A DNA stretch of 24,000 bases from Ilumatobacter sp. (GCF_049588435.1 NZ_JBAVYV010000215.1:1-24000); one strand, 5' to 3'. Counted from the first letter of the stretch, positions 1-23,545 are shown. Made by a program: numbers and translations. Notes: generated from the letters alone by a model not told the origin.

Positions 1-1
1 G

Positions 2-106
2 ATGTTCGCGAATCCGATGTTCGCGAATCCGGCCTATGCGAACCCGGTGTACACAAGCCCGGTCTACGCCAACCCGGTGTACGCGAATCCGACGTACGCA
101 GATGGC
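2..106 (+). repeat. Seven tandem 15-bp units encoding x-[YF]-[AT]-[NS]-P pentapeptides (MFANP MFANP AYANP VYTSP VYANP VYANP TYADG)
   Basis: Direct reading: units at 2-16, 17-31 (identical to the first), 32-46, 47-61, 62-76, 77-91 and 92-106. They are in frame with the S8 peptidase. The array may continue upstream of the window. Confidence 0.85.
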
Positions 107-2284: not shown

Positions 2285-3940
2285 TCAGGGAGTGGCGTTC
2301 GTGTCGCGGACTCCATCCCACCGCAGGACCAGGGCGATCGCGTCGTCTTCGAGCGGGCCCGAAGCCGATCGGAGGTCCATGATGTGAGCGACGAGTTCAT
2401 GCGCATCGAGATCAGATGCTGCCGCGAGCTGACGTCCCAACCGGTCGATTCCGAGGTCGATCGCCTCGCCTCGGTGCTCGACGAGACCATCGGAGAACAG
2501 AACGATCGAGGAGTTGGGTTCAATGGCCGTGTCGTGCTCTGTGCGATCGACGTGTCGGACGACCCCGACCGGCGGCGAGACGGCGCCGTCGAGCAGTCGC
2601 GTTCGCCCGTCGGCGTCGACGACGATTGCGGGCGGATGACCTGCGATCGAGTAGCGGACCGTGCCGGTGCTGGAATCGAGCACGACGCAGATTGCCGTCG
2701 CGAAGTCGACTCCGTTGACGCCGTGAGCGATCCGGTTGAGCGCGTCGAGGAGGGCTGCGGGCGACGGTCCGACCTCGGGTGCGAGCGCCGCGAGCGCCGC
2801 TCGCAGCCGGCCCATCTTCGCCGCAGACTCGACGTCGTGGCCGACGACGTCGCCGACGATCACGGCGACCTCCCCGGTCGGCCAGGCAAACGTGTCGTAC
2901 CAATCACCGCCGACCGTCATGAGGTTGGCGGCGGCACTCACCTGTGCGGCGATCGTGACGCCGGGGGCGTCGACGACGCTGTCGGGAAGAAGCGCTCGCT
3001 GGAGGCGCATCGCGATGTCGTGTTCTTGCTCACCGGCGCGTACCGCTTCCTCGAACAGCTGAGTCCGCTCGAGTGCCAGACCGGTTTGCACCGCCAGACC
3101 GCCGATCAATGACAGCACGTCGTCGTCGAACCACCGTTCCCCGCCTGCTCCGATCACGAGCGACCCGATGGCGGACTTGTCGGCTGCCCGCAATGGCATC
3201 GCGACGATCGATCCGATGCGAGCGTCGTACTCGTCGAAGATCGGGTATCGGTCGCGAACCGCGTCGAACGACTCCAGGTGGAACGACCGATTCGACACGG
3301 CCGCCTCGATCCCGGGGAGAGCAATCGACGCCGGCAGGTCCTCGACGACATTCGCGAGCCCGGATCCGAGACCCGGACCGGGAAGCAACACGAGTTGATC
3401 ACCGCGTCGCACTCGGATCGATGTCAATTCGAGCCCGAGCGCAGTCGTGAGTTCAGATGTCACGGATGCGGCGACCTCCTCGGCGGTCACCGCGCTGGCC
3501 AAGTGGGTTGCATTGCGCTCGAGGGTCTCGAGTTGTTGTCGCGCCCGGCGTTCGCTGTCGAGCAGTTCGGCGCGTTGATGCTCGGCGTCTCTCAAGGTCG
3601 TCGCATCAGCGAGAACGAGCATCACCTGGTTCTCGCCAACTCGCACGACCGAGCAGTCCACAACGATCGGTTGTGGACGCTCGCCGATGAGGTCGAATGA
3701 GTCGACGACGGTGCCGGACTCTGGGTGCCCCTCGACGAGGCCTCGGAGGCCCGGCCACGGTCGGGCGAGGCAGTCGAAGACGTTCTCGAACTCGGTGGCG
3801 TGACTTGCGTTGGTGATGAGCCGCACCGCGGCGGGGTTGATCTGATGGACGGTGCCGTCGTCCGCGAACGAGATCAGGCCCACCGGGCACTGATAGAAGA
3901 ACTCGAGCAGTTGCTGATAGCCGGTGATTCCGTCAGTCAC
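2285..3940 (-). CDS. PAS - coiled coil - GAF - PP2C (SpoIIE/RsbU-type) serine phosphatase
   Basis: 551 aa. N-terminal PAS-like segment (FYQCPVGLISFADDGTVHQINPAA). A helical linker and a GAF-like middle region follow. C-terminal PP2C motifs are GGDWYD, VGDVVGHD and FSDGLVE. The GTG start at 3940-3938 overlaps the stop of the upstream PYP gene. Confidence 0.9.
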   Translation of the reverse strand: MTDGITGYQQLLEFFYQCPVGLISFADDGTVHQINPAAVRLITNASHATEFENVFDCLARPWPGLRGLVEGHPESGTVVDSFDLIGERPQPIVVDCSVVRVGENQVMLVLADATTLRDAEHQRAELLDSERRARQQLETLERNATHLASAVTAEEVAASVTSELTTALGLELTSIRVRRGDQLVLLPGPGLGSGLANVVEDLPASIALPGIEAAVSNRSFHLESFDAVRDRYPIFDEYDARIGSIVAMPLRAADKSAIGSLVIGAGGERWFDDDVLSLIGGLAVQTGLALERTQLFEEAVRAGEQEHDIAMRLQRALLPDSVVDAPGVTIAAQVSAAANLMTVGGDWYDTFAWPTGEVAVIVGDVVGHDVESAAKMGRLRAALAALAPEVGPSPAALLDALNRIAHGVNGVDFATAICVVLDSSTGTVRYSIAGHPPAIVVDADGRTRLLDGAVSPPVGVVRHVDRTEHDTAIEPNSSIVLFSDGLVEHRGEAIDLGIDRLGRQLAAASDLDAHELVAHIMDLRSASGPLEDDAIALVLRWDGVRDTNATP

Positions 3941-4314
3941 CGTCGCAACACCACGAGATATTGGCGATCCGAACCGGCCCTCGCCAGCATGCGTAAGCGC
4001 ACCGGAGTCGGCGCCATGCGGAAGGTGAACACATAGTCGATCGTCTCATCGAGGTCTTCGCTGTCGGCAAACCGTTGCGCAACGAGGAAGTTGTTGGTGC
4101 AGGGACCGACTTCTTCGAAGAAGTTCCGCCCGACCACGCGTTCCCGGTCAAGACCCGAGAGCGCAGATTCGGCGCGGTTGTAGTGGATGACCAGCCCGGA
4201 TCGGTCCATGACCACGAGTCCGAACGAGAGGTCGTCGAAGCGGACGCGGTCTGCCTCGAGCACGTCGATGAGATCCGCCGACGCGAAGTCGACGCTCGCG
4301 TCCGATGTCGCCAT
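3937..4314 (-). CDS. pyp: Photoactive yellow protein (PYP) homologue, stand-alone PAS photoreceptor-type protein
   Basis: From ATG 4314-4312 the product is exactly 125 aa. It matches remembered Halorhodospira PYP along its whole length. Matching blocks are the N-cap F.S.D....L....D...LD.L.FG, HYNRAE (Tyr42/Glu46 equivalents), GRNFFEEVGPCT versus GKNFFKDVAPCT (Cys69 equivalent, codon 4099-4101), and IDYVFTFRMAPTPVRLRM versus FEYTFDYQMTPTKVKVHM. An alternative GTG start at 4347 would add 11 aa. Confidence 0.85.
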   Translation of the reverse strand: MATSDASVDFASADLIDVLEADRVRFDDLSFGLVVMDRSGLVIHYNRAESALSGLDRERVVGRNFFEEVGPCTNNFLVAQRFADSEDLDETIDYVFTFRMAPTPVRLRMLARAGSDRQYLVVLRR

Positions 4315-4449
4315 GCGCGGGAGGGTACTACCTCGCAGGGCGTGCACGAGAGGAGCAGTGTCCGCATGTGCTGTGGGTGCTGCTGCACCTGATCTCGCGC
4401 GTACGTGATGCGTTTCCGGGTGGTGGCTGGTCAGTCGGATCGGGCGTCG

Positions 4450-5125: not shown

Positions 5126-6478
5126 TCAGTCGGCGCGCGTGATGGTGAGACCTGCGTTGGCGGCGTTGTCGAAGTCGTCGTCGATGAGGACGACGTCGTG
5201 CCCAGCGCGGTCGAGGAGCGATGCAGCGATGCTGGCTCGGTAGCCGCTCTGGCAGTGCACGTGCACCGGCTCGTCGGGAACTTCGAGCAGGCGTCCGAGG
5301 AGTTCGTGCAACGGGATGTGCGTCGAGCCGTCGATGTGCCCGTCGGCGTACTCGTTGTTGCGGCGGGTGTCGATGATCCGTGGGTCGACCTCGCCGGCAA
5401 GATCGCCGAACGTCGCGACGGCATAACTGCTGCGATCGGCATCGTGCGCCCACGCGTCGAGACCTCCGTGGGCTGCGCCGGTCGGCCGGTCGACGCCGAT
5501 CCGCGCGAGCTGGCGTTGAGCCTCGGCAATCTCGTCGCGGCTGTCGGCGAGGAGCGTGACGGGCATGCCCCACGGGAGCAGCCACCCGAGATAGGTCGAG
5601 AAACCATCGGCGAGTTCGATGCCGATCGTGCCCGCAATGTGTGACGAGGCGAACTCGCGTCGCTTGCGCATGTCGACGACCCATTCACCGCGATGGATGC
5701 GACGGGCGAGTTCGACCGGGTCGACCTCAGCCGGTGGTGACAGGTCGACCGCCGTGGCTCCGGCGGTGTTGAGCGGACCCATCTGTGCGTAGTACTTCGG
5801 GAACGCGTCGAGGCCGGCGATGAGTTCGTTCACGAACGTGCTCTCGTCGGTGGCCGTGAGCGCGAGGTTGGCGCGTCGTTCGGTGGCGAGGGTTCCGTCG
5901 GATTCCATGTCGCTCGACGCCGATGCGCAGAAGCTTCCGAACCCGTGTGTCGGGTAGACGAGCGTGTCGTCGGGGAGCGCGTCTGCGAGTGCATGAACCG
6001 AGCGGTACTGGGCGTGAGTGAGTTCGTCGGTGGCGTCGGCGCTGATCAGGTCGGTTCTGCCGACGGTGCCGTACAGCATCGATCCGCCGGTGAACACCGC
6101 GGGTGGCTCGCCTTCGGCGACCACGACGTACGAAAGGTGGTGCGGCGTGTGCCCGGGGGTGTGGCGCACTTCAACACGCATCTTGCCGATCTCGACGGTG
6201 TCGCCGTCGCGGACAGCGTGGTAGTCGAAGCACAATGGTTCGTCGGCTGCGTGGAGATACGTCGCCCCGGTGATCCTCGCGAGGGAGAGACCGCCGCTGA
6301 CGTAGTCGTTGTGGACGTGTGTTTCGGCCACGTGGCTGATCGCGATGCCGACCTCCTCGGCCCGCTCGATGAGTCGTTCGATGTCGCGCTGGGGATCGAT
6401 GACGAGCCCGACTGTTCCATCGTGGACGATGTACGACCGGTCCCCGAGCGATGGTGTCTCGATGGTGATGACCTGCAT
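5126..6478 (-). CDS. MBL-fold metallo-hydrolase (persulfide-dioxygenase-like) fused to two rhodanese-like domains
   Basis: 450 aa from ATG 6478-6476, preceded by GAGGAGG. The MBL motif is THVHNDYVSGG, followed by HTPGHTPHH. The C-terminal rhodanese active-site loop is HCQSGYRAS. The first rhodanese-like domain lacks the Cys. Confidence 0.9.
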   Translation of the reverse strand: MQVITIETPSLGDRSYIVHDGTVGLVIDPQRDIERLIERAEEVGIAISHVAETHVHNDYVSGGLSLARITGATYLHAADEPLCFDYHAVRDGDTVEIGKMRVEVRHTPGHTPHHLSYVVVAEGEPPAVFTGGSMLYGTVGRTDLISADATDELTHAQYRSVHALADALPDDTLVYPTHGFGSFCASASSDMESDGTLATERRANLALTATDESTFVNELIAGLDAFPKYYAQMGPLNTAGATAVDLSPPAEVDPVELARRIHRGEWVVDMRKRREFASSHIAGTIGIELADGFSTYLGWLLPWGMPVTLLADSRDEIAEAQRQLARIGVDRPTGAAHGGLDAWAHDADRSSYAVATFGDLAGEVDPRIIDTRRNNEYADGHIDGSTHIPLHELLGRLLEVPDEPVHVHCQSGYRASIAASLLDRAGHDVVLIDDDFDNAANAGLTITRAD

Positions 6479-7397: not shown

Positions 7398-7592
7398 ATG
7401 AGCATCTCCGATGACGACATCAATGAACAACCTGCCGACGACGGGCTCGCACCGACCGCGGGCGGTGGCGCCGATGATTCTGACGGGACCGACGGTGATT
7501 CCGATGGGACCGACGGCGGTCATTCCGATGGAACCGACGGCGGAGACTCGGACGGAACCGACGGCGGAGACTCGGACGGCGCCGACTCCTGA
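7398..7592 (+). CDS. Small, highly acidic peptide (64 aa) ending in about five DSDGTDGG octapeptide repeats
   Basis: ATG at 7398 (the track ORF starts at TTG 7392). Sequence is MSISDDDINEQPADDGLAPTAGGGADDSDGTDG DSDGTDGG HSDGTDGG DSDGTDGG DSDGADS. Differences between repeat units fall mostly on third positions of this frame (gat/gac, tcc/tcg/tct, ggg/gga/ggc). That pattern supports translation in this frame. No clear Shine-Dalgarno sequence. Confidence 0.5.
   Translation: MSISDDDINEQPADDGLAPTAGGGADDSDGTDGDSDGTDGGHSDGTDGGDSDGTDGGDSDGADS
7476..7589 (+). repeat. Imperfect 24-bp tandem repeat (about 4.75 units)
   Basis: Units at 7476-7496 (21 bp), 7497-7520, 7521-7544, 7545-7568 and 7569-7589. 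The consensus is gaY tcN gaY ggN acc gac ggc ggN. Confidence 0.85.
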
Positions 7593-13675: not shown

Positions 13676-15223
13676 TCATGTCGGAAGGTCGAATCGTTGG
13701 ACGACGTTGAAGGTCTCGTGGGTGACCCAGAGTGACCCGTCCTCGACGGCGACACCGTTGACGTCGAGGGGTGTGATCGTGTCGACCACTTCGTACGTGG
13801 TCGCATCGACGACCAGGACATCGTTCGGAAATCCATCCTTCGTGGGGATGAAGATCGACGATCCGTCGGTCGCGATTCCTCCGCCGTGGGCGATCCGACC
13901 GAGGTCGTGGGTCGAGGCGACGGTCCACCCGTCACGATCGACGACCACCGCGGTTGAGTTGAAGTTGCCGGCGAAGAACACGACGTCGTCGAAGATCGCA
14001 GGTGCCAGGACGTCGACCGGCAGTGCCAACGTCGCGAGCAACTCGTTGGTCGTGGGATCGATGAAGGCGGCCATCGGTTCCCTCGTAGCGCCGGGCGCGT
14101 CGTCGTAGACCCAGGCGACCACGAGGTCCTCGGTCGCGGAGACGACGTCGCAGTCGATTCCGATGTCGACCGTGGCGACCCGTTCGACCGTGGTCGGGTC
14201 GTAGCGGTGGAGTAGTTGTCCGTCGCAGACCCACATTGCGCCATCGGTTGCCCAGTTGCGATTCGCGAACGCTCCGACGTCGGATTTGGCGAGCGTTGCA
14301 TCGATCGTGTTCGTCGCCGGGTCGATGCGAACGAACGCGTCGCGTGTGCGTGCCCAGATGCGTTCGTCAGCCCGTTGCACTTTGAGCAGCCCCTCTCCCA
14401 CGTTGATCCTGGCGAGTACCTCGCCGGTCCTTGGGTCGAGCCGGACGACGTCGCCCGTGGCGAACTCGCTGACCCAGACGGAACCGAGCCCGGTCGCGAT
14501 CTGCGCGGCCTGCCCCTCGAGCACCACACTGAGGTCAGCAGATGCCCCGCGGTCGGAATCGGCGGTGGCACAGGTGGCCCCCATCAGTGCGAATCGTGCG
14601 GCATTGCCGGTCAGCACACCGATATGTGTGTCGATCGCAGCCTCGGCGGTGGCCACGTCGCCCGACGCGATCGCTTCCTCGGCATCGGCGAGCGCAGATT
14701 CCGCAAGTCCACCCATCCGAACGACCTCGTCGAACTGTGAGTGCAGGTCGTCGGGCGGCTTGATCTGAGTGACCGCGAGGTCGTCGGCTGTCGAGCGCAG
14801 GACGTCGACTTGCACGCGAGCGGTTTCGATGGTGCCATCATTCGCCGGCAGGCTGCCCACCGATGCACCGTAGGGACCGCAATAGGCGTCGACAGCGGTC
14901 CGGAACTGTTGCATCGTGACGCCAGTCGCGGCCGCCACCTGGTCGCCAACTGTGCCCGACGGTTCGGTGGCCGAGGGTTCCGGGCGGGTCGGTTCCGAGG
15001 TGACCGATTCGGCCGTGGTCGGTTCGGTCGCAACGGGTTGCGTCGTCGACGGCCTCGCCACGGCTGACTGACTCGTGGCGGCACCGGTCTCCGGCGAGGC
15101 ATCGTCGTCGCTCGCGCACGCTCCGACGACGACCGCGATCGTGCAGGCCACGACCATGATTCCGAGGGCGTCGGGTCCGCTGAACAGACGGCGGGTTCGG
15201 GGAAGGGTTCGGTTCCTGTGCAT
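13676..15223 (-). CDS. Secreted lipoprotein (Tat-like RTRRLF motif, lipobox VVGAC) with a helical middle region and a C-terminal beta-propeller (Vgb/NHL/YVTN-like repeats)
   Basis: ATG at 15223-15221 is preceded by AAGGAG at optimal spacing. There is a Pro/Thr/Ser/Glu-rich (PTSE) linker. Recurrent blades have the form V.R.DP.TGEV / F.RIDPATN / FIDPTTNEL / VVDATTYEV. Confidence 0.8.
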   Translation of the reverse strand: MHRNRTLPRTRRLFSGPDALGIMVVACTIAVVVGACASDDDASPETGAATSQSAVARPSTTQPVATEPTTAESVTSEPTRPEPSATEPSGTVGDQVAAATGVTMQQFRTAVDAYCGPYGASVGSLPANDGTIETARVQVDVLRSTADDLAVTQIKPPDDLHSQFDEVVRMGGLAESALADAEEAIASGDVATAEAAIDTHIGVLTGNAARFALMGATCATADSDRGASADLSVVLEGQAAQIATGLGSVWVSEFATGDVVRLDPRTGEVLARINVGEGLLKVQRADERIWARTRDAFVRIDPATNTIDATLAKSDVGAFANRNWATDGAMWVCDGQLLHRYDPTTVERVATVDIGIDCDVVSATEDLVVAWVYDDAPGATREPMAAFIDPTTNELLATLALPVDVLAPAIFDDVVFFAGNFNSTAVVVDRDGWTVASTHDLGRIAHGGGIATDGSSIFIPTKDGFPNDVLVVDATTYEVVDTITPLDVNGVAVEDGSLWVTHETFNVVQRFDLPT

Positions 15224-15289
15224 GAGTGGCTCCTTGTGAGATCACGGCGGGAGCGCCGGTCGCAGCATCGAATGCACGGGCCCGTTGTC

Positions 15290-15321
15290 GTTCTGCAACA
15301 GCTGTCTCGTTGTTGCAGAAC
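15290..15321. promoter_or_regulatory. Perfect 11-bp inverted repeat GTTCTGCAACA-N10-TGTTGCAGAAC, with a third CTGCAAC at 15321-15327
   Basis: It lies in the 156-bp divergent region between the lipoprotein gene (start 15223) and the SARP-kinase-STAND gene (start 15380). The arms extend imperfectly (CGTTGTC / TGCAACCG). Confidence 0.5.
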
Positions 15322-15379
15322 TGCAACCGACTCCAAGTTCGATCTGACGTATCGTTCGACGACCCGGAGGAAGCGCTCC

Positions 15380-18300
15380 ATGTACGTCAGAGTCCTGGGT
15401 CCCGTCGAGGTCGAACGGGACGGTGAAGTCGTCAGAGTTGGTGGCTCCCAGCAACGCCGCCTGCTTGCGTGCCTCGTCGTGCATCGCGGCCAACTCGTGT
15501 CGACGGACCGCTTGGTCGAAGCTCTGTGGCCCGATGGTCTCGCTCCGGAAGGTGCCACGCGATCGATGCGGACCTACCTGTCACGCCTCCGCACGGTGCT
15601 CCCCGAGGGTTCGCTCGTTCATCGCTCGGCGGGCTACCAGCTCGATCTCGATACGATCACCCTCGACCTCGTTGAGTTCGACTCGTTGTTGGATGACTCG
15701 GGTTCGTCGATGCCCGACCAGCAGGTCGATCGGTTCGACGAGGCGCTCGCACTGTGGCGCGGAGCGCCATTCGGTGAGTTCACCGACGAGTGGTGGGCGT
15801 TGTCGGAATCGACCCGGCTCATCGAGCGACGCGCCAGCGCACGAGAGGACCGAGCCGCTGCGTTGATGGCGATGGGCCACCACGGACGGGCGATCGTCGA
15901 CCTCGAGCAGATCGTCTCAGCGTCCCCGATGAGGGAGCAACCCGTACGACTGTTGATGCAGGCTCTCGCCGTCACCGGGCGACGCTCCGACGCACTGCGC
16001 GCCGCCCGCGCCTTCCGGACCCGCCTGGCCGAGGAAACCGGCTTGGATCCGTCCCACGATCTGATCGACCTGGAGGGGGTCATCCTCTTCGATGATGCGG
16101 GCGCGGCACGGTCCGAAGGTCGCCCGCTCCGCGGCTACACGCTTCATGATGCGATCGGTGAGGGTGCGCACGGTCGGGTGTACACGGCGACCCAACCGGG
16201 GACAGACCGGTTGGTGGCCATCAAGGTGATTCGACCCGATCTCGCCGATTCGACCGAGTACGTGCGCCGCTTCGACACCGAGGCGCGACTCGTCGCGCGG
16301 CTGGAGCACCCGCACATCGTTCCCCTCTACGACTACTGGCGCGAACCGGGCGGTGCATTCCTGGTGTTTCGGCTGCTCACGGGTGGAACCGCCCGCGATT
16401 CGGTGGTCACGGGCGGCCCGTGGTCGATGCCGAGAGTCGCGCGGCTCGTCGAGGAAGTCGGTGGAGCGTTGATGGCGGCACACTCGCGCGGAGTCGCGCA
16501 CAACGATGTCAAGGCATCCAATGTGCTCCTCGACGACCAGGGAGCGGCGTACCTCACCGATTTCGGTATCGCGGTGGATGCACTCGCCCACGAGTGCGGC
16601 GATCGCACCGATGACGACCGGAAATCCCAACAACTCGACGTCGAAGGCCTCGCGTGGCTGGTGTGGGAACTGCTCACCGGAGAGCACCCGTCCGGCATCG
16701 GCCCGACGTCCGCCCCGTTCGTATCGTCTCGACACGCCGCACATGTCCCGAGCCTGATCGACCGTGCGACAGCGGTGCCGGATGGGCTCGACGCATTGTT
16801 GAGGTTGGCCGGAGCCCCGGGGGCGGGGGGCTTGACGGTCGCCGAGTTCGTCCTCGGCTGGCGTGCCGCGACGGGTACCGTCGATGGCCGCGCCAGCCCG
16901 ATCACGTCGAGCGACCGCCTCGCTGCCAACTCGGCACGCAGGCGCGCCGCGCACGCACTCACGCTCGCAACTGCCGCGGGAGTCAACCCCTACCGCGGCC
17001 TCCGTCCGTTCGACGTGGCCGATGCCGCCGGGTTCCACGGCCGCTCGAAGGCGGTGGACGACCTCGTCGAACTCGTCACGGTGCGTCGCCTGGTCACGGT
17101 GGTCGGCGCGTCGGGCTCGGGAAAGAGCTCGCTGGTTCGTGCCGGCCTCGTCCCTCGCCTTCAGGCTGAGGGCGTCGTCACCGTCACCACGGTCCCCGGC
17201 GACGACCCGATGGGTGCATTGGATCACGCACTGCGAGAGCTCTCCAGCGCCACTGATGTCGATGCCGCCGACGGACTCGAACGCACCGATGCGCTCGTCG
17301 GTGTCGCCCACCGTTTCGGACGAATCGTCGTCGTGGTCGACCAGTTCGAGGAGTGCTGGACCCGAGCGCGGTCCGATGATCGTGACCGATTCATCGACAT
17401 GGTGGTCGACGCGACACGAAACGATTCGCTCGACGTCTCGTTCGTGCTGACCGTCCGCGCCGATCTGTTGGACGCGCCGCTCGGGCATCCCCGTCTCGGG
17501 CGACTCCTGGGTGACGGCAACTATCTCGTTGCGCCGATGTCGCCGGCGGAACTCGACGAAGCGATCGTGCTGCCGGCAGCGGATGCCGGTGTCTCCTTCG
17601 GCGAGGGTGTCGTCGCGGAGCTGGTCGCGGGTGCCGCACATCGACCTGGGTCGCTGCCGCTGCTGCAGTTCGCCCTGACCGAACTCTACGACCGGCGCAT
17701 CGACGGCGAGATCGGACGAGCGGCCGTCGAATCGATCGGCGGGGTGGCCGGCGCGATCGGGCGTCGTGCCGAAGCGCTGTACCTCGAGAGCGACGACACC
17801 CAACGATCCGCCGCCAGGAGCCTGTTCGATCGTCTGGTCACTCCGGGTGATGGATCCCCCGACACCCGCCGGCGGGCGGCAGTCGGCGAACTCTCCAGCG
17901 ACATGAGCGCAGCGGCCGATCGATTCGTCGCAGCACGATTGCTCGTCACGGATCGCGATCCGGCGACGCGCGAGCCGACCGTCGAGGTGGCTCACGAGGC
18001 GCTGCTCGAACGGTGGCACCGCCTCGCCAAGTGGATCGACGAGGATCGTCGGTGGCTCGAGCAACTTCGACACCTGTCAGCGGCGACGCGTGCATGGGAC
18101 GGCGGTGGGCGTCACGACACCGAGCTGTACAGCGGCGCTCGTCTGGAAGCGGCAATCGACGCAATCGACCTCGACGATCGTCAAGTGTCGGGACTCGAGC
18201 GCGACTTCATCGAATCCGCCCGCGCGGCGCGAGACGCAGAGGTCGTTGCCGCTCGTAGGACGACCCGGCGACTTCGTCGGCGCCTCACTGCGACCGCAGT

Positions 18301-20557
18301 AGCGCTGGTCATCGCGCTGGTGGCCGGAACCGTGGCGATTGTGCAGCGACGCGACGCACTGGACGCCTCGGACCGTTCCATCGCAGCGGATCGCTCCGCA
18401 CAGATCGAGGCGCTGGTCGGTCGCGCCGAGTCGCTGCGGCCGACACAGCGCGACACCGCCGCCCTCCTCGCGGTCGAAGCCCATCGCCTCGCCGACACTC
18501 CCCGGACTCGGTCGGCGCTCTTCGCAACGTTCACCGACGACGAGCGGTTTCTCGACGCCCGCCGGCTCGATGGCGACCGCGGCACGGGTGGCCTCGTGAT
18601 GCCCGATGGAGAGTCGGCCTACCTCACCGGACAGGACGGGGTCCTGCGCCCCTACGACCTTGAAACCGGACAGCTCGGCGCAGCACTGCCGAACGTCGGT
18701 GACGGAGATCCGTTTCCCGTCCTTGTCGCAGCCCCCGACGGACACCTTGCGATCGGGTCGAGGTCCGACACCCGAATCGGACCGACGACCGTCGGAGTCC
18801 TCGACCCAGCGACCGGCGCATTCGCGTTCGAGCCCGTCGTCATCGACGGCGTCGTGACGTCGATGCAGTTCCTCGATGGGCGTCTCGCTCTCGCGATCGG
18901 CGAGAAAGGCAGCCTCGTGTCGATCGACACCGAAACGGGGGAGGAGACCGGATCCGTCCCGGGGGTGGAACTCGCGGACGACGACATCATCTGGACGGTG
19001 GACCGACTCCTCCGTCGACCGTCGGCGGTCGCCACTGCGGATGGGCAGGTGGTACTCGGCTCCGGTGACGGCTCACTGCGCATCCTTCAGCCAGACACGT
19101 TGGCGACGACCAGGACGATCGCACTCGCGCCGGAGACGGTGTCGAGACTCTGGCCGCTCGACGACGGGACGATCGTGACGTCCGGTCGCCTCGGCGTGTC
19201 ACGGGTCGACCTGGTCACCGGAGAGGCGATGTGGTTCGACACCGAGTTCGAACGTTGCGTCAACCTCACCGTTGCTGAGGAGGCAGGAGTGCTCTTTTGC
19301 GGTGACCCGTACGGACGACTCGAAGAACGCGATCTGACCACCGGTGCCGTTCGGCGGCGTCTCGATGCGCAGAACGGAAACAGCGGATCGCTCTGGATCG
19401 CCAACGACGGCACCGAACTCGTCAGCTTCGGAAACAACGAGCCGGTGGTTTCGCGATGGCGTCTCGATCGCTCCGGCCCGATCACCCGGGTCGTGGCTCC
19501 AGGCTGGACCCCCTCCGACTTCGACCACAGCGGCGGTCGTCTCCTCGTCGATCGCGGTGACCCGCTCTCACTGACTTATCAGGCGAAGGTCGTGAACACA
19601 CAGGATGGGTCCGACGTCGCCACGATCGCCGACCAGTTCGATCCCGACCGGGTGGAACGCGACTTGCTGGTGCCCGGGTGGTCGGGCCCTGACGAACTGG
19701 TGGGCATCGCGCTGACCCCTGAGGGAGGCGTCGAACACGGTCGAGTCGACGTCTCCGCCGCGGCCGGACCTCAAACGAACGGATCGGACGTGCGATGGCA
19801 GGCACCGTTCGAGATCCGTGACAATCGCCTCGACACCGGCAAGGACCGAATCCTGTATCGGTATGCAGACGATTCGCTCGCCGCCCTCGACACCGATGGG
19901 CTGGAGTACGGAGCCACGATTCCGATCGACGGGCTCGTGTCGTGGACGATCGATCGGTCCGGTGACCGGATCGCCGCCGGAACGAGTAGCGGAGTCCGGA
20001 TCTTCGATGCCGACACCGGCCAACAGGTGGGCGCGATCCTGCGCGACGACCTGCGCGGCGCCTTCTACACGGCGACCGATCAGTTCTTCGTCAGCTCACT
20101 CGGTGGACAGCTGACCCAGTACGACGCGTCGACGCTCGAGCCGATTCGCACGTTCAACGGCAGTCGCGGACTGATCTTCGGAGTCGTCGGAACCGCTGAT
20201 GGCGGTGTCATCGCGATCAACGGAGGTGACCGCAACGTCGCCCTGTTCGACGTCGCGACCAGCACGCAGATCGGCGGACCGATCTCACTCCGGCCCGACG
20301 AGCGCAATATCGCCCGATTGTCCCTCGACGGCCGGTGGCTGGCCGTCGGTGGGCTGGCGAACGAGAACGACGGTCTCCGCTCCGACCAGGTCGACCGTGC
20401 CCGCGGTACTCAGATCTGGGATCTCGACCCGGGAGTCTGGGAATCCGCGGCCTGCCGGCTCGCAGGTCGCAACCTCACCCCGGACGAGTGGGACTCCAAC
20501 ATCGGCGAGCTCGCGCCCTACCGGGCGACGTGTTCGGACGAAGTGGTCAAGAGCTGA
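15380..20557 (+). CDS. 1725-aa multidomain regulator: SARP (OmpR-type wHTH + BTAD) - atypical Ser/Thr kinase - STAND P-loop NTPase - hydrophobic helix - degenerate WD40-like beta-propeller
   Basis: GGAGG at 15366-15370, then ATG at 15380. The wHTH and BTAD regions run to about 16080. Kinase motifs: GEGAHG 16157-16174, VAIK 16214-16225, HNDVKASN 16499-16522, DFG 16559-16567. NTPase motifs: NPYRGLRPF 16985-17011, Walker A GASGSGKS 17105-17128, Walker B IVVVVDQFEE 17324-17353. The hydrophobic helix is at 18286-18345. Propeller-like repeats run to about 20430. The C-terminal tail AACRLAGRNLTPDEW is typical of actinobacterial WD40-STAND proteins. Confidence 0.9.
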   Translation: MYVRVLGPVEVERDGEVVRVGGSQQRRLLACLVVHRGQLVSTDRLVEALWPDGLAPEGATRSMRTYLSRLRTVLPEGSLVHRSAGYQLDLDTITLDLVEFDSLLDDSGSSMPDQQVDRFDEALALWRGAPFGEFTDEWWALSESTRLIERRASAREDRAAALMAMGHHGRAIVDLEQIVSASPMREQPVRLLMQALAVTGRRSDALRAARAFRTRLAEETGLDPSHDLIDLEGVILFDDAGAARSEGRPLRGYTLHDAIGEGAHGRVYTATQPGTDRLVAIKVIRPDLADSTEYVRRFDTEARLVARLEHPHIVPLYDYWREPGGAFLVFRLLTGGTARDSVVTGGPWSMPRVARLVEEVGGALMAAHSRGVAHNDVKASNVLLDDQGAAYLTDFGIAVDALAHECGDRTDDDRKSQQLDVEGLAWLVWELLTGEHPSGIGPTSAPFVSSRHAAHVPSLIDRATAVPDGLDALLRLAGAPGAGGLTVAEFVLGWRAATGTVDGRASPITSSDRLAANSARRRAAHALTLATAAGVNPYRGLRPFDVADAAGFHGRSKAVDDLVELVTVRRLVTVVGASGSGKSSLVRAGLVPRLQAEGVVTVTTVPGDDPMGALDHALRELSSATDVDAADGLERTDALVGVAHRFGRIVVVVDQFEECWTRARSDDRDRFIDMVVDATRNDSLDVSFVLTVRADLLDAPLGHPRLGRLLGDGNYLVAPMSPAELDEAIVLPAADAGVSFGEGVVAELVAGAAHRPGSLPLLQFALTELYDRRIDGEIGRAAVESIGGVAGAIGRRAEALYLESDDTQRSAARSLFDRLVTPGDGSPDTRRRAAVGELSSDMSAAADRFVAARLLVTDRDPATREPTVEVAHEALLERWHRLAKWIDEDRRWLEQLRHLSAATRAWDGGGRHDTELYSGARLEAAIDAIDLDDRQVSGLERDFIESARAARDAEVVAARRTTRRLRRRLTATAVALVIALVAGTVAIVQRRDALDASDRSIAADRSAQIEALVGRAESLRPTQRDTAALLAVEAHRLADTPRTRSALFATFTDDERFLDARRLDGDRGTGGLVMPDGESAYLTGQDGVLRPYDLETGQLGAALPNVGDGDPFPVLVAAPDGHLAIGSRSDTRIGPTTVGVLDPATGAFAFEPVVIDGVVTSMQFLDGRLALAIGEKGSLVSIDTETGEETGSVPGVELADDDIIWTVDRLLRRPSAVATADGQVVLGSGDGSLRILQPDTLATTRTIALAPETVSRLWPLDDGTIVTSGRLGVSRVDLVTGEAMWFDTEFERCVNLTVAEEAGVLFCGDPYGRLEERDLTTGAVRRRLDAQNGNSGSLWIANDGTELVSFGNNEPVVSRWRLDRSGPITRVVAPGWTPSDFDHSGGRLLVDRGDPLSLTYQAKVVNTQDGSDVATIADQFDPDRVERDLLVPGWSGPDELVGIALTPEGGVEHGRVDVSAAAGPQTNGSDVRWQAPFEIRDNRLDTGKDRILYRYADDSLAALDTDGLEYGATIPIDGLVSWTIDRSGDRIAAGTSSGVRIFDADTGQQVGAILRDDLRGAFYTATDQFFVSSLGGQLTQYDASTLEPIRTFNGSRGLIFGVVGTADGGVIAINGGDRNVALFDVATSTQIGGPISLRPDERNIARLSLDGRWLAVGGLANENDGLRSDQVDRARGTQIWDLDPGVWESAACRLAGRNLTPDEWDSNIGELAPYRATCSDEVVKS

Positions 20558-20636
20558 GCGGGCATGGACGATCGCAGGCCGGTTCGGTATCGAGCAGATA
20601 TCTGGGACAGTGCCCGGTGGGATCACCACACCGCTC

Positions 20637-20697
20637 GTCGCGCATTTCGTCGCCGGCCGCACGGTTTCGCGACGAGAACGCTGGATCACCGGGTGGA
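20637..20697 (+). repeat. Copy 2 of the 59-61 nt direct repeat (first copy at 11051-11111)
   Basis: gtcgcgcatttcgtcgccggCcgcacggtttcgcgacgagaacgctggatcaccgggtgGa. It lies in the roughly 250-bp gap between the SARP-kinase-STAND stop (20557) and the cyclase-STAND start. Confidence 0.9.
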
Positions 20698-20812
20698 CGG
20701 GAAGTCAGCGAGCCCGGAACGTCATCTCTCCGGTGTTGATCGCCTTCGCGATGGGTTTCCCGGTTGTCCGGCGTCGGGACGAGCTCCGATTCGGATGTGG
20801 CAGGGTGTCGCG

Positions 20813-23545
20813 GTGGGGGAACTCCCGACCGGCACCGTGACATTCCTGTTCACCGATGTCGTCGCGAGCACTCGGCGGTGGCAAGAGCAGCCGGAGACGA
20901 TGGCGGCCGCGTTGGCCGCGCACGATGGCATCCTTCGCTCAGCGATTGCCGACCTCGGTGGATACGTGTTCTCCACGGCCGGCGATGCATTCGCGGCTGC
21001 GTTCTCGACAGCGTCCGATGCCATTGCCGCCGCCGTCGCTGCGCAGCGCGGACTCGCCGACGCCGAATGGCCAGGCGAGCTACGACTCGAGGTTCGGATG
21101 GGTATCAATACCGGTGAGTCCGTCGAGCGCGGTGGCGACTATTTCGGACCCACTTTGAACGTCGCAGCTCGGGCGATGTCGGTCGCTCACGGCGGCCAGA
21201 TCGTTTCGACCGATGCCTCAGCCCGTCTCGTCGGTCGACCCGCGCACGGTATCGATCTCGTCGAACTCGGTGCCCACGCGCTCCGCGACATCGAGGGTTC
21301 GGTCGTCCTGCACCAAGTCGTGGCCGACGGCATCCGCCAGGACTTCCCACCGTTGCGGACCACCGATGCCACTCGCGTGTCGCTTCCATCCACGCGAAGC
21401 AGTTTTGTCGGGCGGATCGACGACATCGCCCGCGTCCGTCATGCTCTCGAGACACACCGTCTCGTCACCCTGACCGGCGCCGGTGGTTGTGGGAAAACGA
21501 GACTGGCGGTCGAGGTCGCCTCGCGTGTCGTCGTTCGATTCGACGACGGCGTTCGCTTCGTCGACCTCGCTCGTGTCGGTGAGAACGCCGGTGTCGCCGA
21601 AGCGCTCGCCGTGGCCATCGACTTCATCCCCAGCTCGGCTGGGAAGATCGGGTCTCAAATTCGCCGACGGCTCGGCTCCGGGAGGCAGCTCCTCGTGGTC
21701 GACAACTGCGAGCACGTGATCGACGAAGTCGTCGAACAGGTCGACGCGATCCTCGTTGAATGCCCGAACGTCCGGGTCTTGGCGACCAGCCGCGAACCGC
21801 TCGATCTCGATGGCGAGCGCGTCGTGCGAGTTCCTCCGCTCGATCTCGACGGTGGCGGCGGGCGTCCGGCGGCGGAGATGCTCTTCATCGAGCGAATGGT
21901 CGATCTCGGGGTGACGGCCGACGGAGAAGTCGGGGCGTCCTCCGATGACGAGGCGATTGGCGCGATCTGTCGGCGCTTGGACGGGCTTCCGTTGGCGATC
22001 GAGCTTGCGGCGGCCCGGACTGCCGTGTTGTCGCCGGCGCAGATCGTTGAGCGTCTCGATGACCGGTTCTCGTTGCTCACTGGTGGTCGCCGCCGTACCA
22101 GGGGTCGACACCACACTCTGGAGGCGACGATCGGTTGGAGTTTCGATCTGCTCGATGACGGCGAGCGCGATGTGCTCCGGCGGATCTCGGTGATGCCCGG
22201 TGCCTTCGACCTCGAGATGGCGACCGCGGTGCTCGATGGTTCGCCGGCAGCGACGCTGGATCTTCTCGATGCGCTCGTCGCTCGCTCGTTGCTGCAATCC
22301 GTACGTGACGAGGGCGGCTCCCGGTTTCGGCTTCTCGAGACGATTCGGTCGTATGCGTACGACCGACTCGCCGAGCGCGGTGATGTCGAGGCAACGCGCG
22401 ATCGGCACAGCCGCCATGTGGCCGAGCGTCTCGACGGGATCGGACTCTTCTTTCACTCGATGCGCCCCGTTCAGGACCCGATCGCCGACGACGTTCTCGC
22501 TGCAATCGACTGGGCGAGGTCGCGTGGAGATCGCGCGCTCGCGGCGGACCTGCTCGCCGGTGGGCTCGGGGTCCCGATCGCCCGCGGTGCGTACGAGCGA
22601 GCGCTCGACGTCGCGGCGTGGGCGACGGCTGCAGATGATCCGTTGGTGCGCAGCCGAGCCAATCTGGCGCGCGGCTATCTGGCGATGGTCGCCGACAGCG
22701 AAGACACTTCTCCGTCGCGGTGTGCCGACGCTGCATTGGGAGAGGCCGGCGACGAATGGGTGCGCTGGCGGGGGAACGCCCACGTCTTGGCCATGGTGTA
22801 TTCGGTACTCAGCAATCGGGTTGTCTTTGCGGAGCACGTGCGCCTCGCCCGCGCGGCGATCGAGACCGGTGAATGCATGCCCGACACCGCAGCGCAGGTT
22901 GATTGGCTCGAGACGCTGGGGGAGCTGTGGCGGAGTGAGACCGTCGACGCCACCCGCCTTGCACGACCTGATCCGAACGTCCCCGTCGACGAGCTCGCGC
23001 TCGTGAATCTCTACGGTGTACGCCTGCTGGCACCGTTGTTCAACGGTGATGTCGCAGCGATCGAACGAGAACTGATCGACGCCGAGGCTGCCGCCGCGCG
23101 CAGGAGGTTCCTCGATGCAGGTGCCCGTGGCGAGCACTGGAGGCTGAGCTACGAAGCCATCCGGGGCGCTGCGATGTCCGTGATCGGTCGTGTCGACGAA
23201 GCCCGACATGACCTCGCCTCGGCTCTCCGATTGATCGGGCCGGACCCGATGCCAGGGATTGCCGAGGACTTCCTCGGGGCACTCGCCTGGACCTCCATCG
23301 CTGCGGGAGAACCCGCGCACGCAGCCGAACTCCTCGACGACACGTGGGTGATCGCGAGGTCACCGAGCACGATCGTGATGAACACCGTCGCCCAGGAACG
23401 AGCATTGGGACTCCCGGCGGATCCTGAACGTCGCACGTCGGAGCTCCTCCGCCGAATCCACCTCCGAGATGTCATCCGCCGCGAGAACCGGACGCGCCGC
23501 GCCCTCGAAGGCGAACTGGCGCGGCTCGGGCTCAGCTCGCGTTGA
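20813..23545 (+). CDS. Class III adenylate/guanylate cyclase - STAND (AAA/NB-ARC-like) NTPase - TPR-like C-terminal region; no C-terminal HTH detected
   Basis: Cyclase motifs: GTVTFLFTDVVAST, TAGDAFAAAF, RMGINTGE and GPTLNVAARAM. Walker A GAGGCGKT at 21476-21499 and Walker B LLVVDNCEHV. A long helical repeat region follows. The start is taken at GTG 20813 (M-GELPTGTVTFLFTD), which is a family-typical N-terminus. ATG 20795 is an alternative start. Track ORF start 20564 is rejected because of poor codon bias. Confidence 0.88.
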   Translation: MGELPTGTVTFLFTDVVASTRRWQEQPETMAAALAAHDGILRSAIADLGGYVFSTAGDAFAAAFSTASDAIAAAVAAQRGLADAEWPGELRLEVRMGINTGESVERGGDYFGPTLNVAARAMSVAHGGQIVSTDASARLVGRPAHGIDLVELGAHALRDIEGSVVLHQVVADGIRQDFPPLRTTDATRVSLPSTRSSFVGRIDDIARVRHALETHRLVTLTGAGGCGKTRLAVEVASRVVVRFDDGVRFVDLARVGENAGVAEALAVAIDFIPSSAGKIGSQIRRRLGSGRQLLVVDNCEHVIDEVVEQVDAILVECPNVRVLATSREPLDLDGERVVRVPPLDLDGGGGRPAAEMLFIERMVDLGVTADGEVGASSDDEAIGAICRRLDGLPLAIELAAARTAVLSPAQIVERLDDRFSLLTGGRRRTRGRHHTLEATIGWSFDLLDDGERDVLRRISVMPGAFDLEMATAVLDGSPAATLDLLDALVARSLLQSVRDEGGSRFRLLETIRSYAYDRLAERGDVEATRDRHSRHVAERLDGIGLFFHSMRPVQDPIADDVLAAIDWARSRGDRALAADLLAGGLGVPIARGAYERALDVAAWATAADDPLVRSRANLARGYLAMVADSEDTSPSRCADAALGEAGDEWVRWRGNAHVLAMVYSVLSNRVVFAEHVRLARAAIETGECMPDTAAQVDWLETLGELWRSETVDATRLARPDPNVPVDELALVNLYGVRLLAPLFNGDVAAIERELIDAEAAAARRRFLDAGARGEHWRLSYEAIRGAAMSVIGRVDEARHDLASALRLIGPDPMPGIAEDFLGALAWTSIAAGEPAHAAELLDDTWVIARSPSTIVMNTVAQERALGLPADPERRTSELLRRIHLRDVIRRENRTRRALEGELARLGLSSR

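Follow-up and report, generated by a model that had tools for sequence, protein, structure and literature searches.

A photoactive yellow protein homologue and its candidate receiver domain in front of an RsbU-like phosphatase in Ilumatobacter sp.

A pyp homologue overlaps a phosphatase gene

We describe two overlapping genes on the minus strand of a 24-kb stretch of DNA from Ilumatobacter sp. (Acidimicrobiia), an actinobacterium. The first, pyp, codes for a small homologue of photoactive yellow protein (PYP), and the second, referred to below as the effector gene, codes for a predicted phosphatase of the SpoIIE/PP2C type (Table 1). The whole stretch that was analysed, 24,000 nucleotides long, is called the window; its G+C content is 66%. 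Both proteins have Ilumatobacter sp. database records on a 34-kb contig, and the same DNA stretch was found again in a Logan assembly. The conserved partner of PYP is the N-terminal PAS-like domain of the phosphatase, which we call X, rather than the PP2C domain as such, since other outputs follow the same X elsewhere.

The pyp reading frame translates into 125 residues (MATSDASVDFASADL...YLVVLRR) and its 3' end reads CGA CGG TGA, with the last sense codon (CGG) at 3942-3940 and the stop codon at 3939-3937. The three bases of this stop codon are shared with the beginning of the effector gene, whose start codon is GTG (3940-3938). The resulting GTGA overlap is a translational coupling signature. 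An earlier note on this DNA (below, the original prediction) had reported a 125-residue open reading frame (ORF) homologous to PYP from end to end, with its TGA overlapping the GTG of a 551-residue phosphatase gene; both the homology and the overlap were borne out by our analysis.

Table 1. Features of the pyp-effector locus (positions counted in the window).
Feature	Position	Strand	Remarks
pyp, 125-aa stand-alone PYP homologue, clade C type	3937..4314	-	WP_423980825.1; NCBI label 'PAS domain-containing protein'
Effector gene, 551-aa X(PAS-like)-GAF-PP2C	2285..3940	-	WP_423980824.1; NCBI label 'SpoIIE family protein phosphatase'
GTGA overlap, 4 nt	3937..3940	-	effector GTG 3940-3938 over pyp TGA 3939-3937
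Y45 and E49 codons	4182-4180 and 4170-4168 (span 4168..4182)	-	Tyr42 and Glu46 equivalents
C72 codon	4099..4101	-	Cys69 equivalent, putative p-coumaric acid thioester site
Domain X, residues ~5-121, predicted cofactor-less PAS fold	3578..3928	-	motif LLEFFYQCPVGL...NPAA
Long helix after X, residues 113 to ~150	3491..3604	-	helix 113-133 in the AlphaFold2 model; presumed beyond residue 134
GAF domain, residues 152-291	3068..3487	-	Pfam GAF_2, 29.6 bits (cut-off 28.6)
PP2C/SpoIIE-type (RsbU-like) phosphatase domain, residues 355-541	2318..2878	-	Pfam SpoIIE, 143.5 bits, E 1e-41
Intergenic region 5' of pyp, 135 nt	4315..4449	-	putative promoter site

The small protein as a clade C-type PYP homologue

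The NCBIfam model TIGR02373 ('photo_yellow') matches the 125-aa protein with an E-value of 4.2e-27 (94.7 bits) over model positions 3-122 of 124. By sequence it has 33 matches in the PDB, which belong without exception to PYP, Ppr-PYP or the PYP-derived FAST and have E-values from 6.6e-22 to 1e-9. The AlphaFold2 model, built with 24 relatives as input, has a pLDDT of 87.5. When this model was compared with the PDB by Foldseek, the top 39 matches were all PYP, Ppr-PYP or FAST (TM 0.66-0.85), full-length PYP crystal structures aligning with TM 0.80-0.85 over 122 columns, N-terminal cap included; the first non-PYP PAS domain in the list has TM 0.64. Judging by sequence and predicted structure, the protein is thus a stand-alone, end-to-end PYP homologue distinct from generic PAS domains, as had been supposed.

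In Halorhodospira halophila PYP, Tyr42 and Glu46 hydrogen-bond the chromophore, and Cys69 is the thioester attachment site for p-coumaric acid. The equivalent residues in the window protein are Y45 and E49 within the HYNRAE motif and C72 within GPCT, while the Thr50 position is occupied by Ser and the Arg52 position by Leu. The original prediction had named all five positions correctly. The 120 closest relatives in the databases are 59-73% identical to it and stem mostly from metagenomes; many carry the JGI name 'photoactive yellow protein'. In this set Tyr42 and Glu46 are conserved in 120/120 and Cys69 in 119/120. In PYPs that adjoin X, which come from three phyla, the figures are 121/121 for Cys69, 121/121 for Glu46 and 120/121 for Tyr42. 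The chromophore triad is therefore strictly conserved among these relatives. Cys69 has been used as the criterion for functional PYP members (Xing, Gumerov & Zhulin, 2022; PMC9664959).

The 120 relatives have Ser or Ala instead of Thr50, Leu or Ile instead of Arg52, Tyr instead of Trp119 and Leu or Ile instead of Phe92; Met100 is kept. Phe96 is retained in all 120, although the published description of clade C has this residue as no longer conserved. The PYP of Geodermatophilus, which served Xing et al. (2022) as their actinobacterial query, has the clade C label in Data Set S3 of that study. Because of this label and of the residue profile of the relatives, the PYP of the window can be placed in clade C.

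Compared with the established members of the family, the PYP of H. halophila and the Ppr-PYP of Rhodospirillum centenum, the window protein has the same length and the same predicted fold with the N-terminal cap, and Tyr42, Glu46 and Cys69 are conserved. Its identity is 31-33% to the former and 44-48% to the latter. It shares the clade C traits of a kept Met100 and lost Trp119 and Phe92. Further differences are the R52L and T50S replacements, a deletion of three to four residues after helix alpha5 and the actinobacterial host.

X directly follows pyp in nearly all loci

A scan of one genome per species gave 54 loci with PYP relatives, 37 of which belong to Actinomycetota (Streptosporangiaceae, Acidimicrobiia, Solirubrobacteraceae, Pseudonocardiales and others); the remaining ones belong to Burkholderiales, Alphaproteobacteria and Schleiferiaceae. 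Clade C PYPs are widespread in Actinomycetota and much commoner there than reported earlier. PYP had been listed in fewer than five actinobacterial genomes, and clade C genes had been noted to adjoin genes for GGDEF proteins often (Xing et al., 2022). To the background given in the original prediction, where PYP is mainly a protein of Gram-negative phyla, these earlier actinobacterial listings have to be added.

In nearly all of these loci, the gene after pyp opens with a stretch of about 120 residues that has its homologue in the window phosphatase (residues 5-125), even where the remainder of the protein is unrelated. We quantified this linkage by searching profile hidden Markov models (HMMs) for PYP and X against six-frame translations with a limit of 450 nt. 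X was found within 450 nt downstream of pyp in 52 of the 53 genome loci with enough downstream sequence. For the reverse test, 80 metagenome loci were picked by the X motif alone, and PYP was present within 450 nt upstream of X in each of the 66 loci which had at least 450 nt of upstream sequence and could be scored; this test rests on one narrow motif, [QE][FL][FLM]Y[QVA]CPVG. Both directions pooled, PYP and X are directly adjacent in 118 of 119 places.

The exception (L018, 3616-4110) is the only pyp without X. The last strand of its product is replaced by unrelated sequence, which amounts to a C-terminal truncation, and the gene abuts an opposite-strand ORF for a putative, MFS-like transporter. 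It is probably a decaying pyp remnant.

The pyp stop codon overlaps the next start codon at 34 of the 55 PYP-effector junctions: 28 have the same 4-nt ATGA or GTGA overlap as the window, and six more overlap by 1-10 nt. The co-translation proposed for the Ilumatobacter pair thus extends to a conserved coupling. We conclude that PYP and X form a near-obligate gene pair with exchangeable outputs. Adjacency of pyp and a PP2C gene does recur in Actinomycetota, as the locus survey has shown, but the constant part of the linkage (52/53 loci) is X and not PP2C itself.

Several unusual arrangements of these genes were also seen. An Actinomycetota metagenome-assembled genome (MAG) has a pair of complete PYP-X-PAS-GGDEF modules arranged head to tail (L043:4308-7598), and L010 and L012 are modules on separate contigs of a single MAG. 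A Rhodospirillales hybrid histidine kinase (P0157; L031:6428-8443) has a tandem pair of X domains after one pyp. In a bacteriophytochrome-like protein of 1216 aa (P0213), X is internal and spans residues 839-967. The sequences P0182 and P0203 look like artefacts of a frameshift or of gene calling over the PYP-X junction.

Fold and family of X

Pfam has no match to the X domain of the window at E<=1, and its relatives yield only sub-threshold PAS_8 and PAS_4 matches. Of the PAS-GAF-PP2C architecture originally predicted, the GAF_2 and SpoIIE domains are recognised by Pfam, while the N-terminal PAS domain is seen only as a fold. In the AlphaFold2 model of X (pLDDT 89.8), a PAS core of five strands is preceded by a helix at the N-terminus and followed by a long one at the C-terminus. 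The best Foldseek matches are PAS domains of WalK, FixL, short LOV proteins and PYP; the generic ones, from WalK, FixL and short LOV proteins, have comparable helices on either side and TM 0.5-0.65. X is therefore predicted to have a PAS fold, and the long helix after it resembles the linker helix which joins PAS sensors to their output domains.

X has only three invariant residues (L8, P16 and G18), with no invariant Cys or other cofactor-type residue among them; the Cys of the YxCPVGL motif is substituted in many members. We considered X as a decayed second copy of PYP and rejected this, as hhalign gave a probability of 49% over just 27 columns for the alignment of the X and PYP profiles.

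A profile HMM of X matches the window at 3919-3578 with an E-value of 8e-37. A single-sequence search of a 5.8-billion-protein index with the X of the window gave no match, and a profile search of the same index returned short stand-alone X proteins only. When 1.84 billion representative proteins were searched exhaustively with the profile, the family proved small, with 577 X-containing clusters at E<=1e-10 and 1076 at E<=1e-3; of the best 150 matches listed, nearly all had X at their very N-terminus. X is a dedicated, previously unnamed PYP-linked domain which occurs essentially only directly downstream of clade C-type PYPs.

Output domains behind X

The domains which follow X vary: SpoIIE/PP2C, MarR, GGDEF, GGDEF-EAL, HisKA-HATPase (with or without REC), or none. 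Most actinobacterial loci have SpoIIE/PP2C, in the form of X-PP2C, X-GAF-PP2C (the type found in the window) or the long X-PAS-GAF-PP2C. X-MarR proteins occur in Pseudonocardiales, and X-GGDEF or GGDEF-EAL proteins in Burkholderiales and others. Carriers in culture include Geodermatophilus poikilotrophus with its SpoIIE neighbour, Actinomycetospora chlora JCM 17979 and Pseudonocardia spirodelae DW16-2 with X-MarR, and Nocardioides rubriscoriae with a stand-alone X. Among 98 multidomain X representatives the outputs were GGDEF (51), HATPase_c (12), SpoIIE (8), EAL (5), MarR (3) and PHY (1).

X proteins without an output domain are 140-200 aa long. Two proteobacterial metagenome operons (L136:340-4688 and L139:435-4090) code for a histidine kinase, PYP, a stand-alone X of 148-150 aa and an AMP-binding ligase, in this order, with a 4-nt overlap at the PYP-X junction and X as a separate small protein. 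In these operons X is tied both to PYP and to a likely chromophore-activating enzyme.

The predicted phosphatase and partner switching

The effector of the window retains the PP2C motifs GGDWYD, GDVVGHD, FSDGL and EDDAIAL, and its SpoIIE score is far above the Pfam cut-off of 25 bits. The closest solved relative of the PP2C domain is Mycobacterium tuberculosis Rv1364c (E 9.8e-23), and the alignment keeps GGDW[YF]D, GDVVGH and DGL. Hence the predicted output of the effector is an RsbU-like SpoIIE/PP2C phosphatase. Rv1364c is a PAS-PP2C-RsbW-STAS partner-switching fusion.

In one actinobacterial sublineage (L003, L008 and L021) a STAS gene is located directly upstream of pyp. The effector of the first of these loci (972 aa) has the X-PAS-GAF-GAF-PP2C architecture and ends in a C-terminal RsbW-type HATPase_c_2 domain. 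Taken together, STAS, pyp and this effector (L003:4429-8120) make a nearly complete partner-switching set around PYP. The upstream STAS gene and the fused HATPase_c_2 domain in these relatives support a partner-switching role for the PP2C class of modules. Directly beside the clade A pyp of Rhodopila globiformis, the Data Set S3 mentioned above (Xing et al., 2022) lists genes for a methyl-accepting chemotaxis protein, an anti-sigma-factor antagonist, an ATP-binding protein, a PAS-PAS-SpoIIE protein and a response regulator. This neighbourhood would be a second, independent association of PYP with partner switching.

Proposed mechanism

We propose that PYP and the X-GAF-PP2C effector act together as a sensory module made up of two translationally coupled genes. 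The parts of this model that we infer are that the chromophore is attached, that the signal is light, that PYP physically binds X, in which direction the phosphatase is regulated and that it has a STAS target in this genome. The clade C PYP would most likely carry p-coumaric acid on Cys72 and be sensitive to blue light or near-UV. It may bind the X domain of the effector while in one of its photostates. X itself is probably a dimer held by its N-terminal cap helix and its C-terminal linker helix. From X the change could be relayed along the linker helix and through the GAF domain to the PP2C domain of RsbU type, whose activity would be altered. The most likely substrate of the phosphatase would be a phosphorylated STAS protein, an anti-anti-sigma factor with its gene elsewhere in the genome, and a sigma factor would in this way come under the control of light through partner switching. 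We give this whole model, in which PYP binds X, X controls the RsbU-type phosphatase and light thereby acts on a sigma factor, a probability of roughly 0.6.

On balance we also lean towards a wider reading: that X is a portable cofactor-less PAS 'socket', a dedicated receiver for stand-alone clade C PYPs with five or more types of output (PP2C phosphatases, MarR-type regulators, diguanylate cyclases, phosphodiesterases and histidine kinases), and that the window contains the first light-regulated RsbU-type input to partner switching in Actinomycetota.

A number of observations weigh against the proposed model. Every ORF of appreciable size in the window could be assigned, but not one codes for a TAL/HAL-type aromatic ammonia-lyase (TAL, tyrosine ammonia-lyase), an AMP-binding coumarate-CoA ligase (pCL), a STAS protein or an anti-sigma factor, absences which the original prediction had listed as well. 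Motif scans of 135 related loci, besides the window, found a lyase or ligase motif nearby in only eight: the MIO-type lyase motif in three Schleiferiaceae loci and AMP-binding enzymes in five others. This scarcity matches the published figures, according to which TAL is near about 5-10% and pCL near about 30% of pyp genes (Xing et al., 2022; Dohmen et al., 2025, PMC12826048), and so it neither supports nor refutes chromophore binding. STAS neighbours are limited to the single sublineage mentioned above, and no other recurring neighbours of the PP2C-type modules were found beyond the synteny of close relatives. The 94.7 bits of the window protein fall short of the TIGR02373 equivalog cut-off of 143.05 bits, which is a weak membership criterion because the model recovers only about 20% of PYP homologues (Xing et al., 2022). 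Replacement of Thr50 by Ser or Ala and of Arg52 by Leu or Ile extends throughout the clade C-type relatives. Clade C PYPs are called uncharacterised, none having been studied biochemically (Xing et al., 2022). Finally, an apparent natural PYP-X-PAS fusion from the representative library (P0258, 558 aa), with a Trp codon at the expected pyp stop, speaks for the model but is a single sequence and could be due to a sequencing error in the stop codon.

Some of these points can be explained if the PYP homologue is no photoreceptor and the same pocket senses a small molecule (e.g., free hydroxycinnamates from plants or peat) or the redox state and signals to X and the phosphatase. Such a sensor would agree with the absence of chromophore synthesis genes from the window and their rarity in related loci, with the biochemically uncharacterised state of clade C and with the clade-wide loss of R52 and T50; redox neofunctionalisation has been proposed for some PYP homologues (Xing et al., 2022). 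However, the homologues with a presumed change of function in that survey have lost Cys69 or Tyr42, while here these are kept in 121/121 and 120/121 proteins, respectively, along with Glu46 in 121/121. Retention of the triad is what a covalent, hydrogen-bonded chromophore would require, so it counts against a non-photoreceptor role. As for the replaced residues, Ser at position 50 is also present in Ppr-PYP, which is characterised and photoactive, and crystal structures of the R52Q and T50V mutants exist in the PDB. Both mutants of PYP remain photoactive. As for the chromophore, some relatives have an AMP-binding ligase in the same operon, and the TAL and pCL figures from the literature show how seldom such genes accompany pyp in general. 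We consider this explanation unlikely.

Another possibility is that PYP and the effector are merely co-expressed, X being an ordinary ligand-sensing PAS domain and PYP acting elsewhere or in parallel. The fold of X is indeed that of a generic PAS domain, many effectors have additional PAS or GAF domains able to take other inputs, and the binding of PYP to X is itself a proposal. But nothing would confine a PAS domain with a ligand of its own to the position directly behind pyp (66/66 and 52/53 loci). Its position is constant while the output changes among six classes, stand-alone X proteins occur inside pyp operons, and L8, P16 and G18, the sole invariant residues, offer neither a Cys nor another cofactor-type residue. 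Co-expression without contact through X seems quite improbable to us.

That a small ORF coding for one of many generic PAS proteins lies beside the phosphatase gene by coincidence is suggested by annotation (NCBI and UniRef label the protein only as 'PAS domain-containing protein' and Pfam finds only PAS/PAS_4 in it), and this is effectively refuted by the PYP-specific profile, the PDB matches, the fold, the triad and the reciprocal linkage statistics.

Relation to known systems

Close precedents of the proposed module are the clade C PYP-GGDEF/EAL pairs and the PYP-GGDEF pair proposed in Idiomarina loihiensis, where a stand-alone PYP is likewise followed by a signalling enzyme encoded on the same strand. 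The output differs, being an RsbU-type PP2C phosphatase in Ilumatobacter, and the common denominator over the outputs is X. That PYP binds its neighbouring protein is an already published idea (Xing et al., 2022; Dohmen et al., 2025). Both surveys, the second of which analysed 113 pyp operons, list GGDEF/EAL, HisKA/HATPase, pCL, TAL and BLUF near pyp. The words 'phosphatase', 'SpoIIE' and 'PP2C' do not occur in their main texts; the supplementary tables of Xing et al. (2022) include, without discussion, a SpoIIE neighbour in Geodermatophilus. A term search of Dohmen et al. (2025) did not find MarR, and no N-terminal domain shared by the proteins downstream of PYP came up in term searches or in the sections consulted of the two surveys. 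When full texts were searched for 'photoactive yellow protein' together with PP2C or SpoIIE, nothing came up but an unrelated paper. PYP and partner switching through PP2C are each known already.

In Rhodobacter capsulatus the 142-aa dimeric protein PBP (RCAP_rcc01067), encoded beside pyp, binds photoactivated Rc-PYP and is the functional precedent that comes nearest; it has N-terminal helices followed by beta-strands and a reported pI of 3.9 (Kim et al., preprint, doi: 10.1101/2021.06.01.446672). Stand-alone X proteins of 140-150 aa are like PBP in size and in the order of secondary structure elements, the two being compared by description only. PBP differs in that its partner Rc-PYP belongs to clade A and in that it has no output domain, and none of the retrieved X proteins fits the reported size, pI of 3.9 and extinction coefficient of PBP.

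The RsbQ-RsbP system of Bacillus subtilis, in which a small protein from the same operon is needed to activate a phosphatase through its PAS domain, resembles the proposed module from the side of the output. RsbP, Rv1364c and the window effector all have a PAS domain N-terminal to an RsbU-type PP2C domain. The small partner in Ilumatobacter is a PAS protein of the photoreceptor type, whereas a partner of the RsbQ type is a hydrolase. In comparison with Rv1364c, the window effector has a GAF domain and lacks a fused kinase or STAS domain, and no STAS gene lies within the 24 kb; the layout of Rv1364c is mirrored by L003 with its STAS gene, pyp and X-PAS-GAF-PP2C-HATPase_c_2 effector.

Light or redox input through a PAS protein into a stress-sigma or another signalling pathway is also the principle of YtvA (LOV-STAS, sigma-B, Bacillus) and of the split PAS sensors CetB/CetA. 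These differ in their flavin chromophore, in their stressosome or chemoreceptor architecture and in having no dedicated receiver PAS domain. The analogy with a separate PAS-only sensor talking to an effector was drawn by Xing et al. (2022).

Other genes and repeats of the window

Upstream of pyp, on the same strand, lie a class I methyltransferase gene (at a distance of 135 nt) and, 58 nt further, a gene at 5126-6478 coding for a metallo-beta-lactamase (MBL) domain fused to two rhodanese domains, with the methyltransferase gene downstream of it. The MBL-rhodanese protein is possibly persulfide dioxygenase-like. Neither gene recurs at any related locus, and we rejected both as parts of the module: with no conservation of these neighbours in relatives, nothing ties them to it. 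The strand and the gaps are as given in the original prediction, which had suggested that these genes may be co-transcribed with pyp. The module's own promoter may be situated in the 135-nt region upstream of pyp. Consensus promoter and terminator scans, this region included, yielded nothing usable.

On the plus strand, 15218-20557 codes for a 1779-aa protein with a winged-helix/BTAD region, a Ser/Thr kinase, an nSTAND1 NTPase and beta-propeller repeats. It is directly followed by a gene (20564-23545) for a 993-aa adenylate/guanylate cyclase-AAA/NB-ARC protein. Both products are large STAND-type signalling proteins unrelated to the PYP finding.

Two tandem repeats were also noted. The first 100 nt of the window (1-100, plus strand) contain a 15/30-nt repeat whose translation gives pentapeptide repeats of the (F/Y)ANP type (MFANPMFANPAYANPVYTSPVYANP...). 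It stands at the start of a subtilase S8-domain ORF, which may begin upstream of the window. A 24-nt repeat of about three copies (7475-7586) is located between the MBL-rhodanese and JmjC/cupin genes. Its plus strand can be translated as DGTDGGDS repeats, and no gene was assigned there.

Implications for PYP signalling

PYP has been a textbook photoreceptor since 1985. The number of its known carriers in Actinomycetota grows here to 37 loci in species-representative genomes, from fewer than five genomes in 2022, and PP2C phosphatases and MarR regulators join the list of probable PYP outputs. The PYP-X pair suggests a modular light-controlled binding pair that could serve optogenetics. According to both surveys, the route from a single-domain PYP to its downstream partners is unknown (Xing et al., 2022; Dohmen et al., 2025). 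Nearly exclusive to the neighbourhood of pyp, whatever the output, X is a concrete candidate for signal transfer from stand-alone PYPs and, if the socket reading of X is true, it would give, for clade C, a general answer to the decades-old question of the partner of single-domain PYP.

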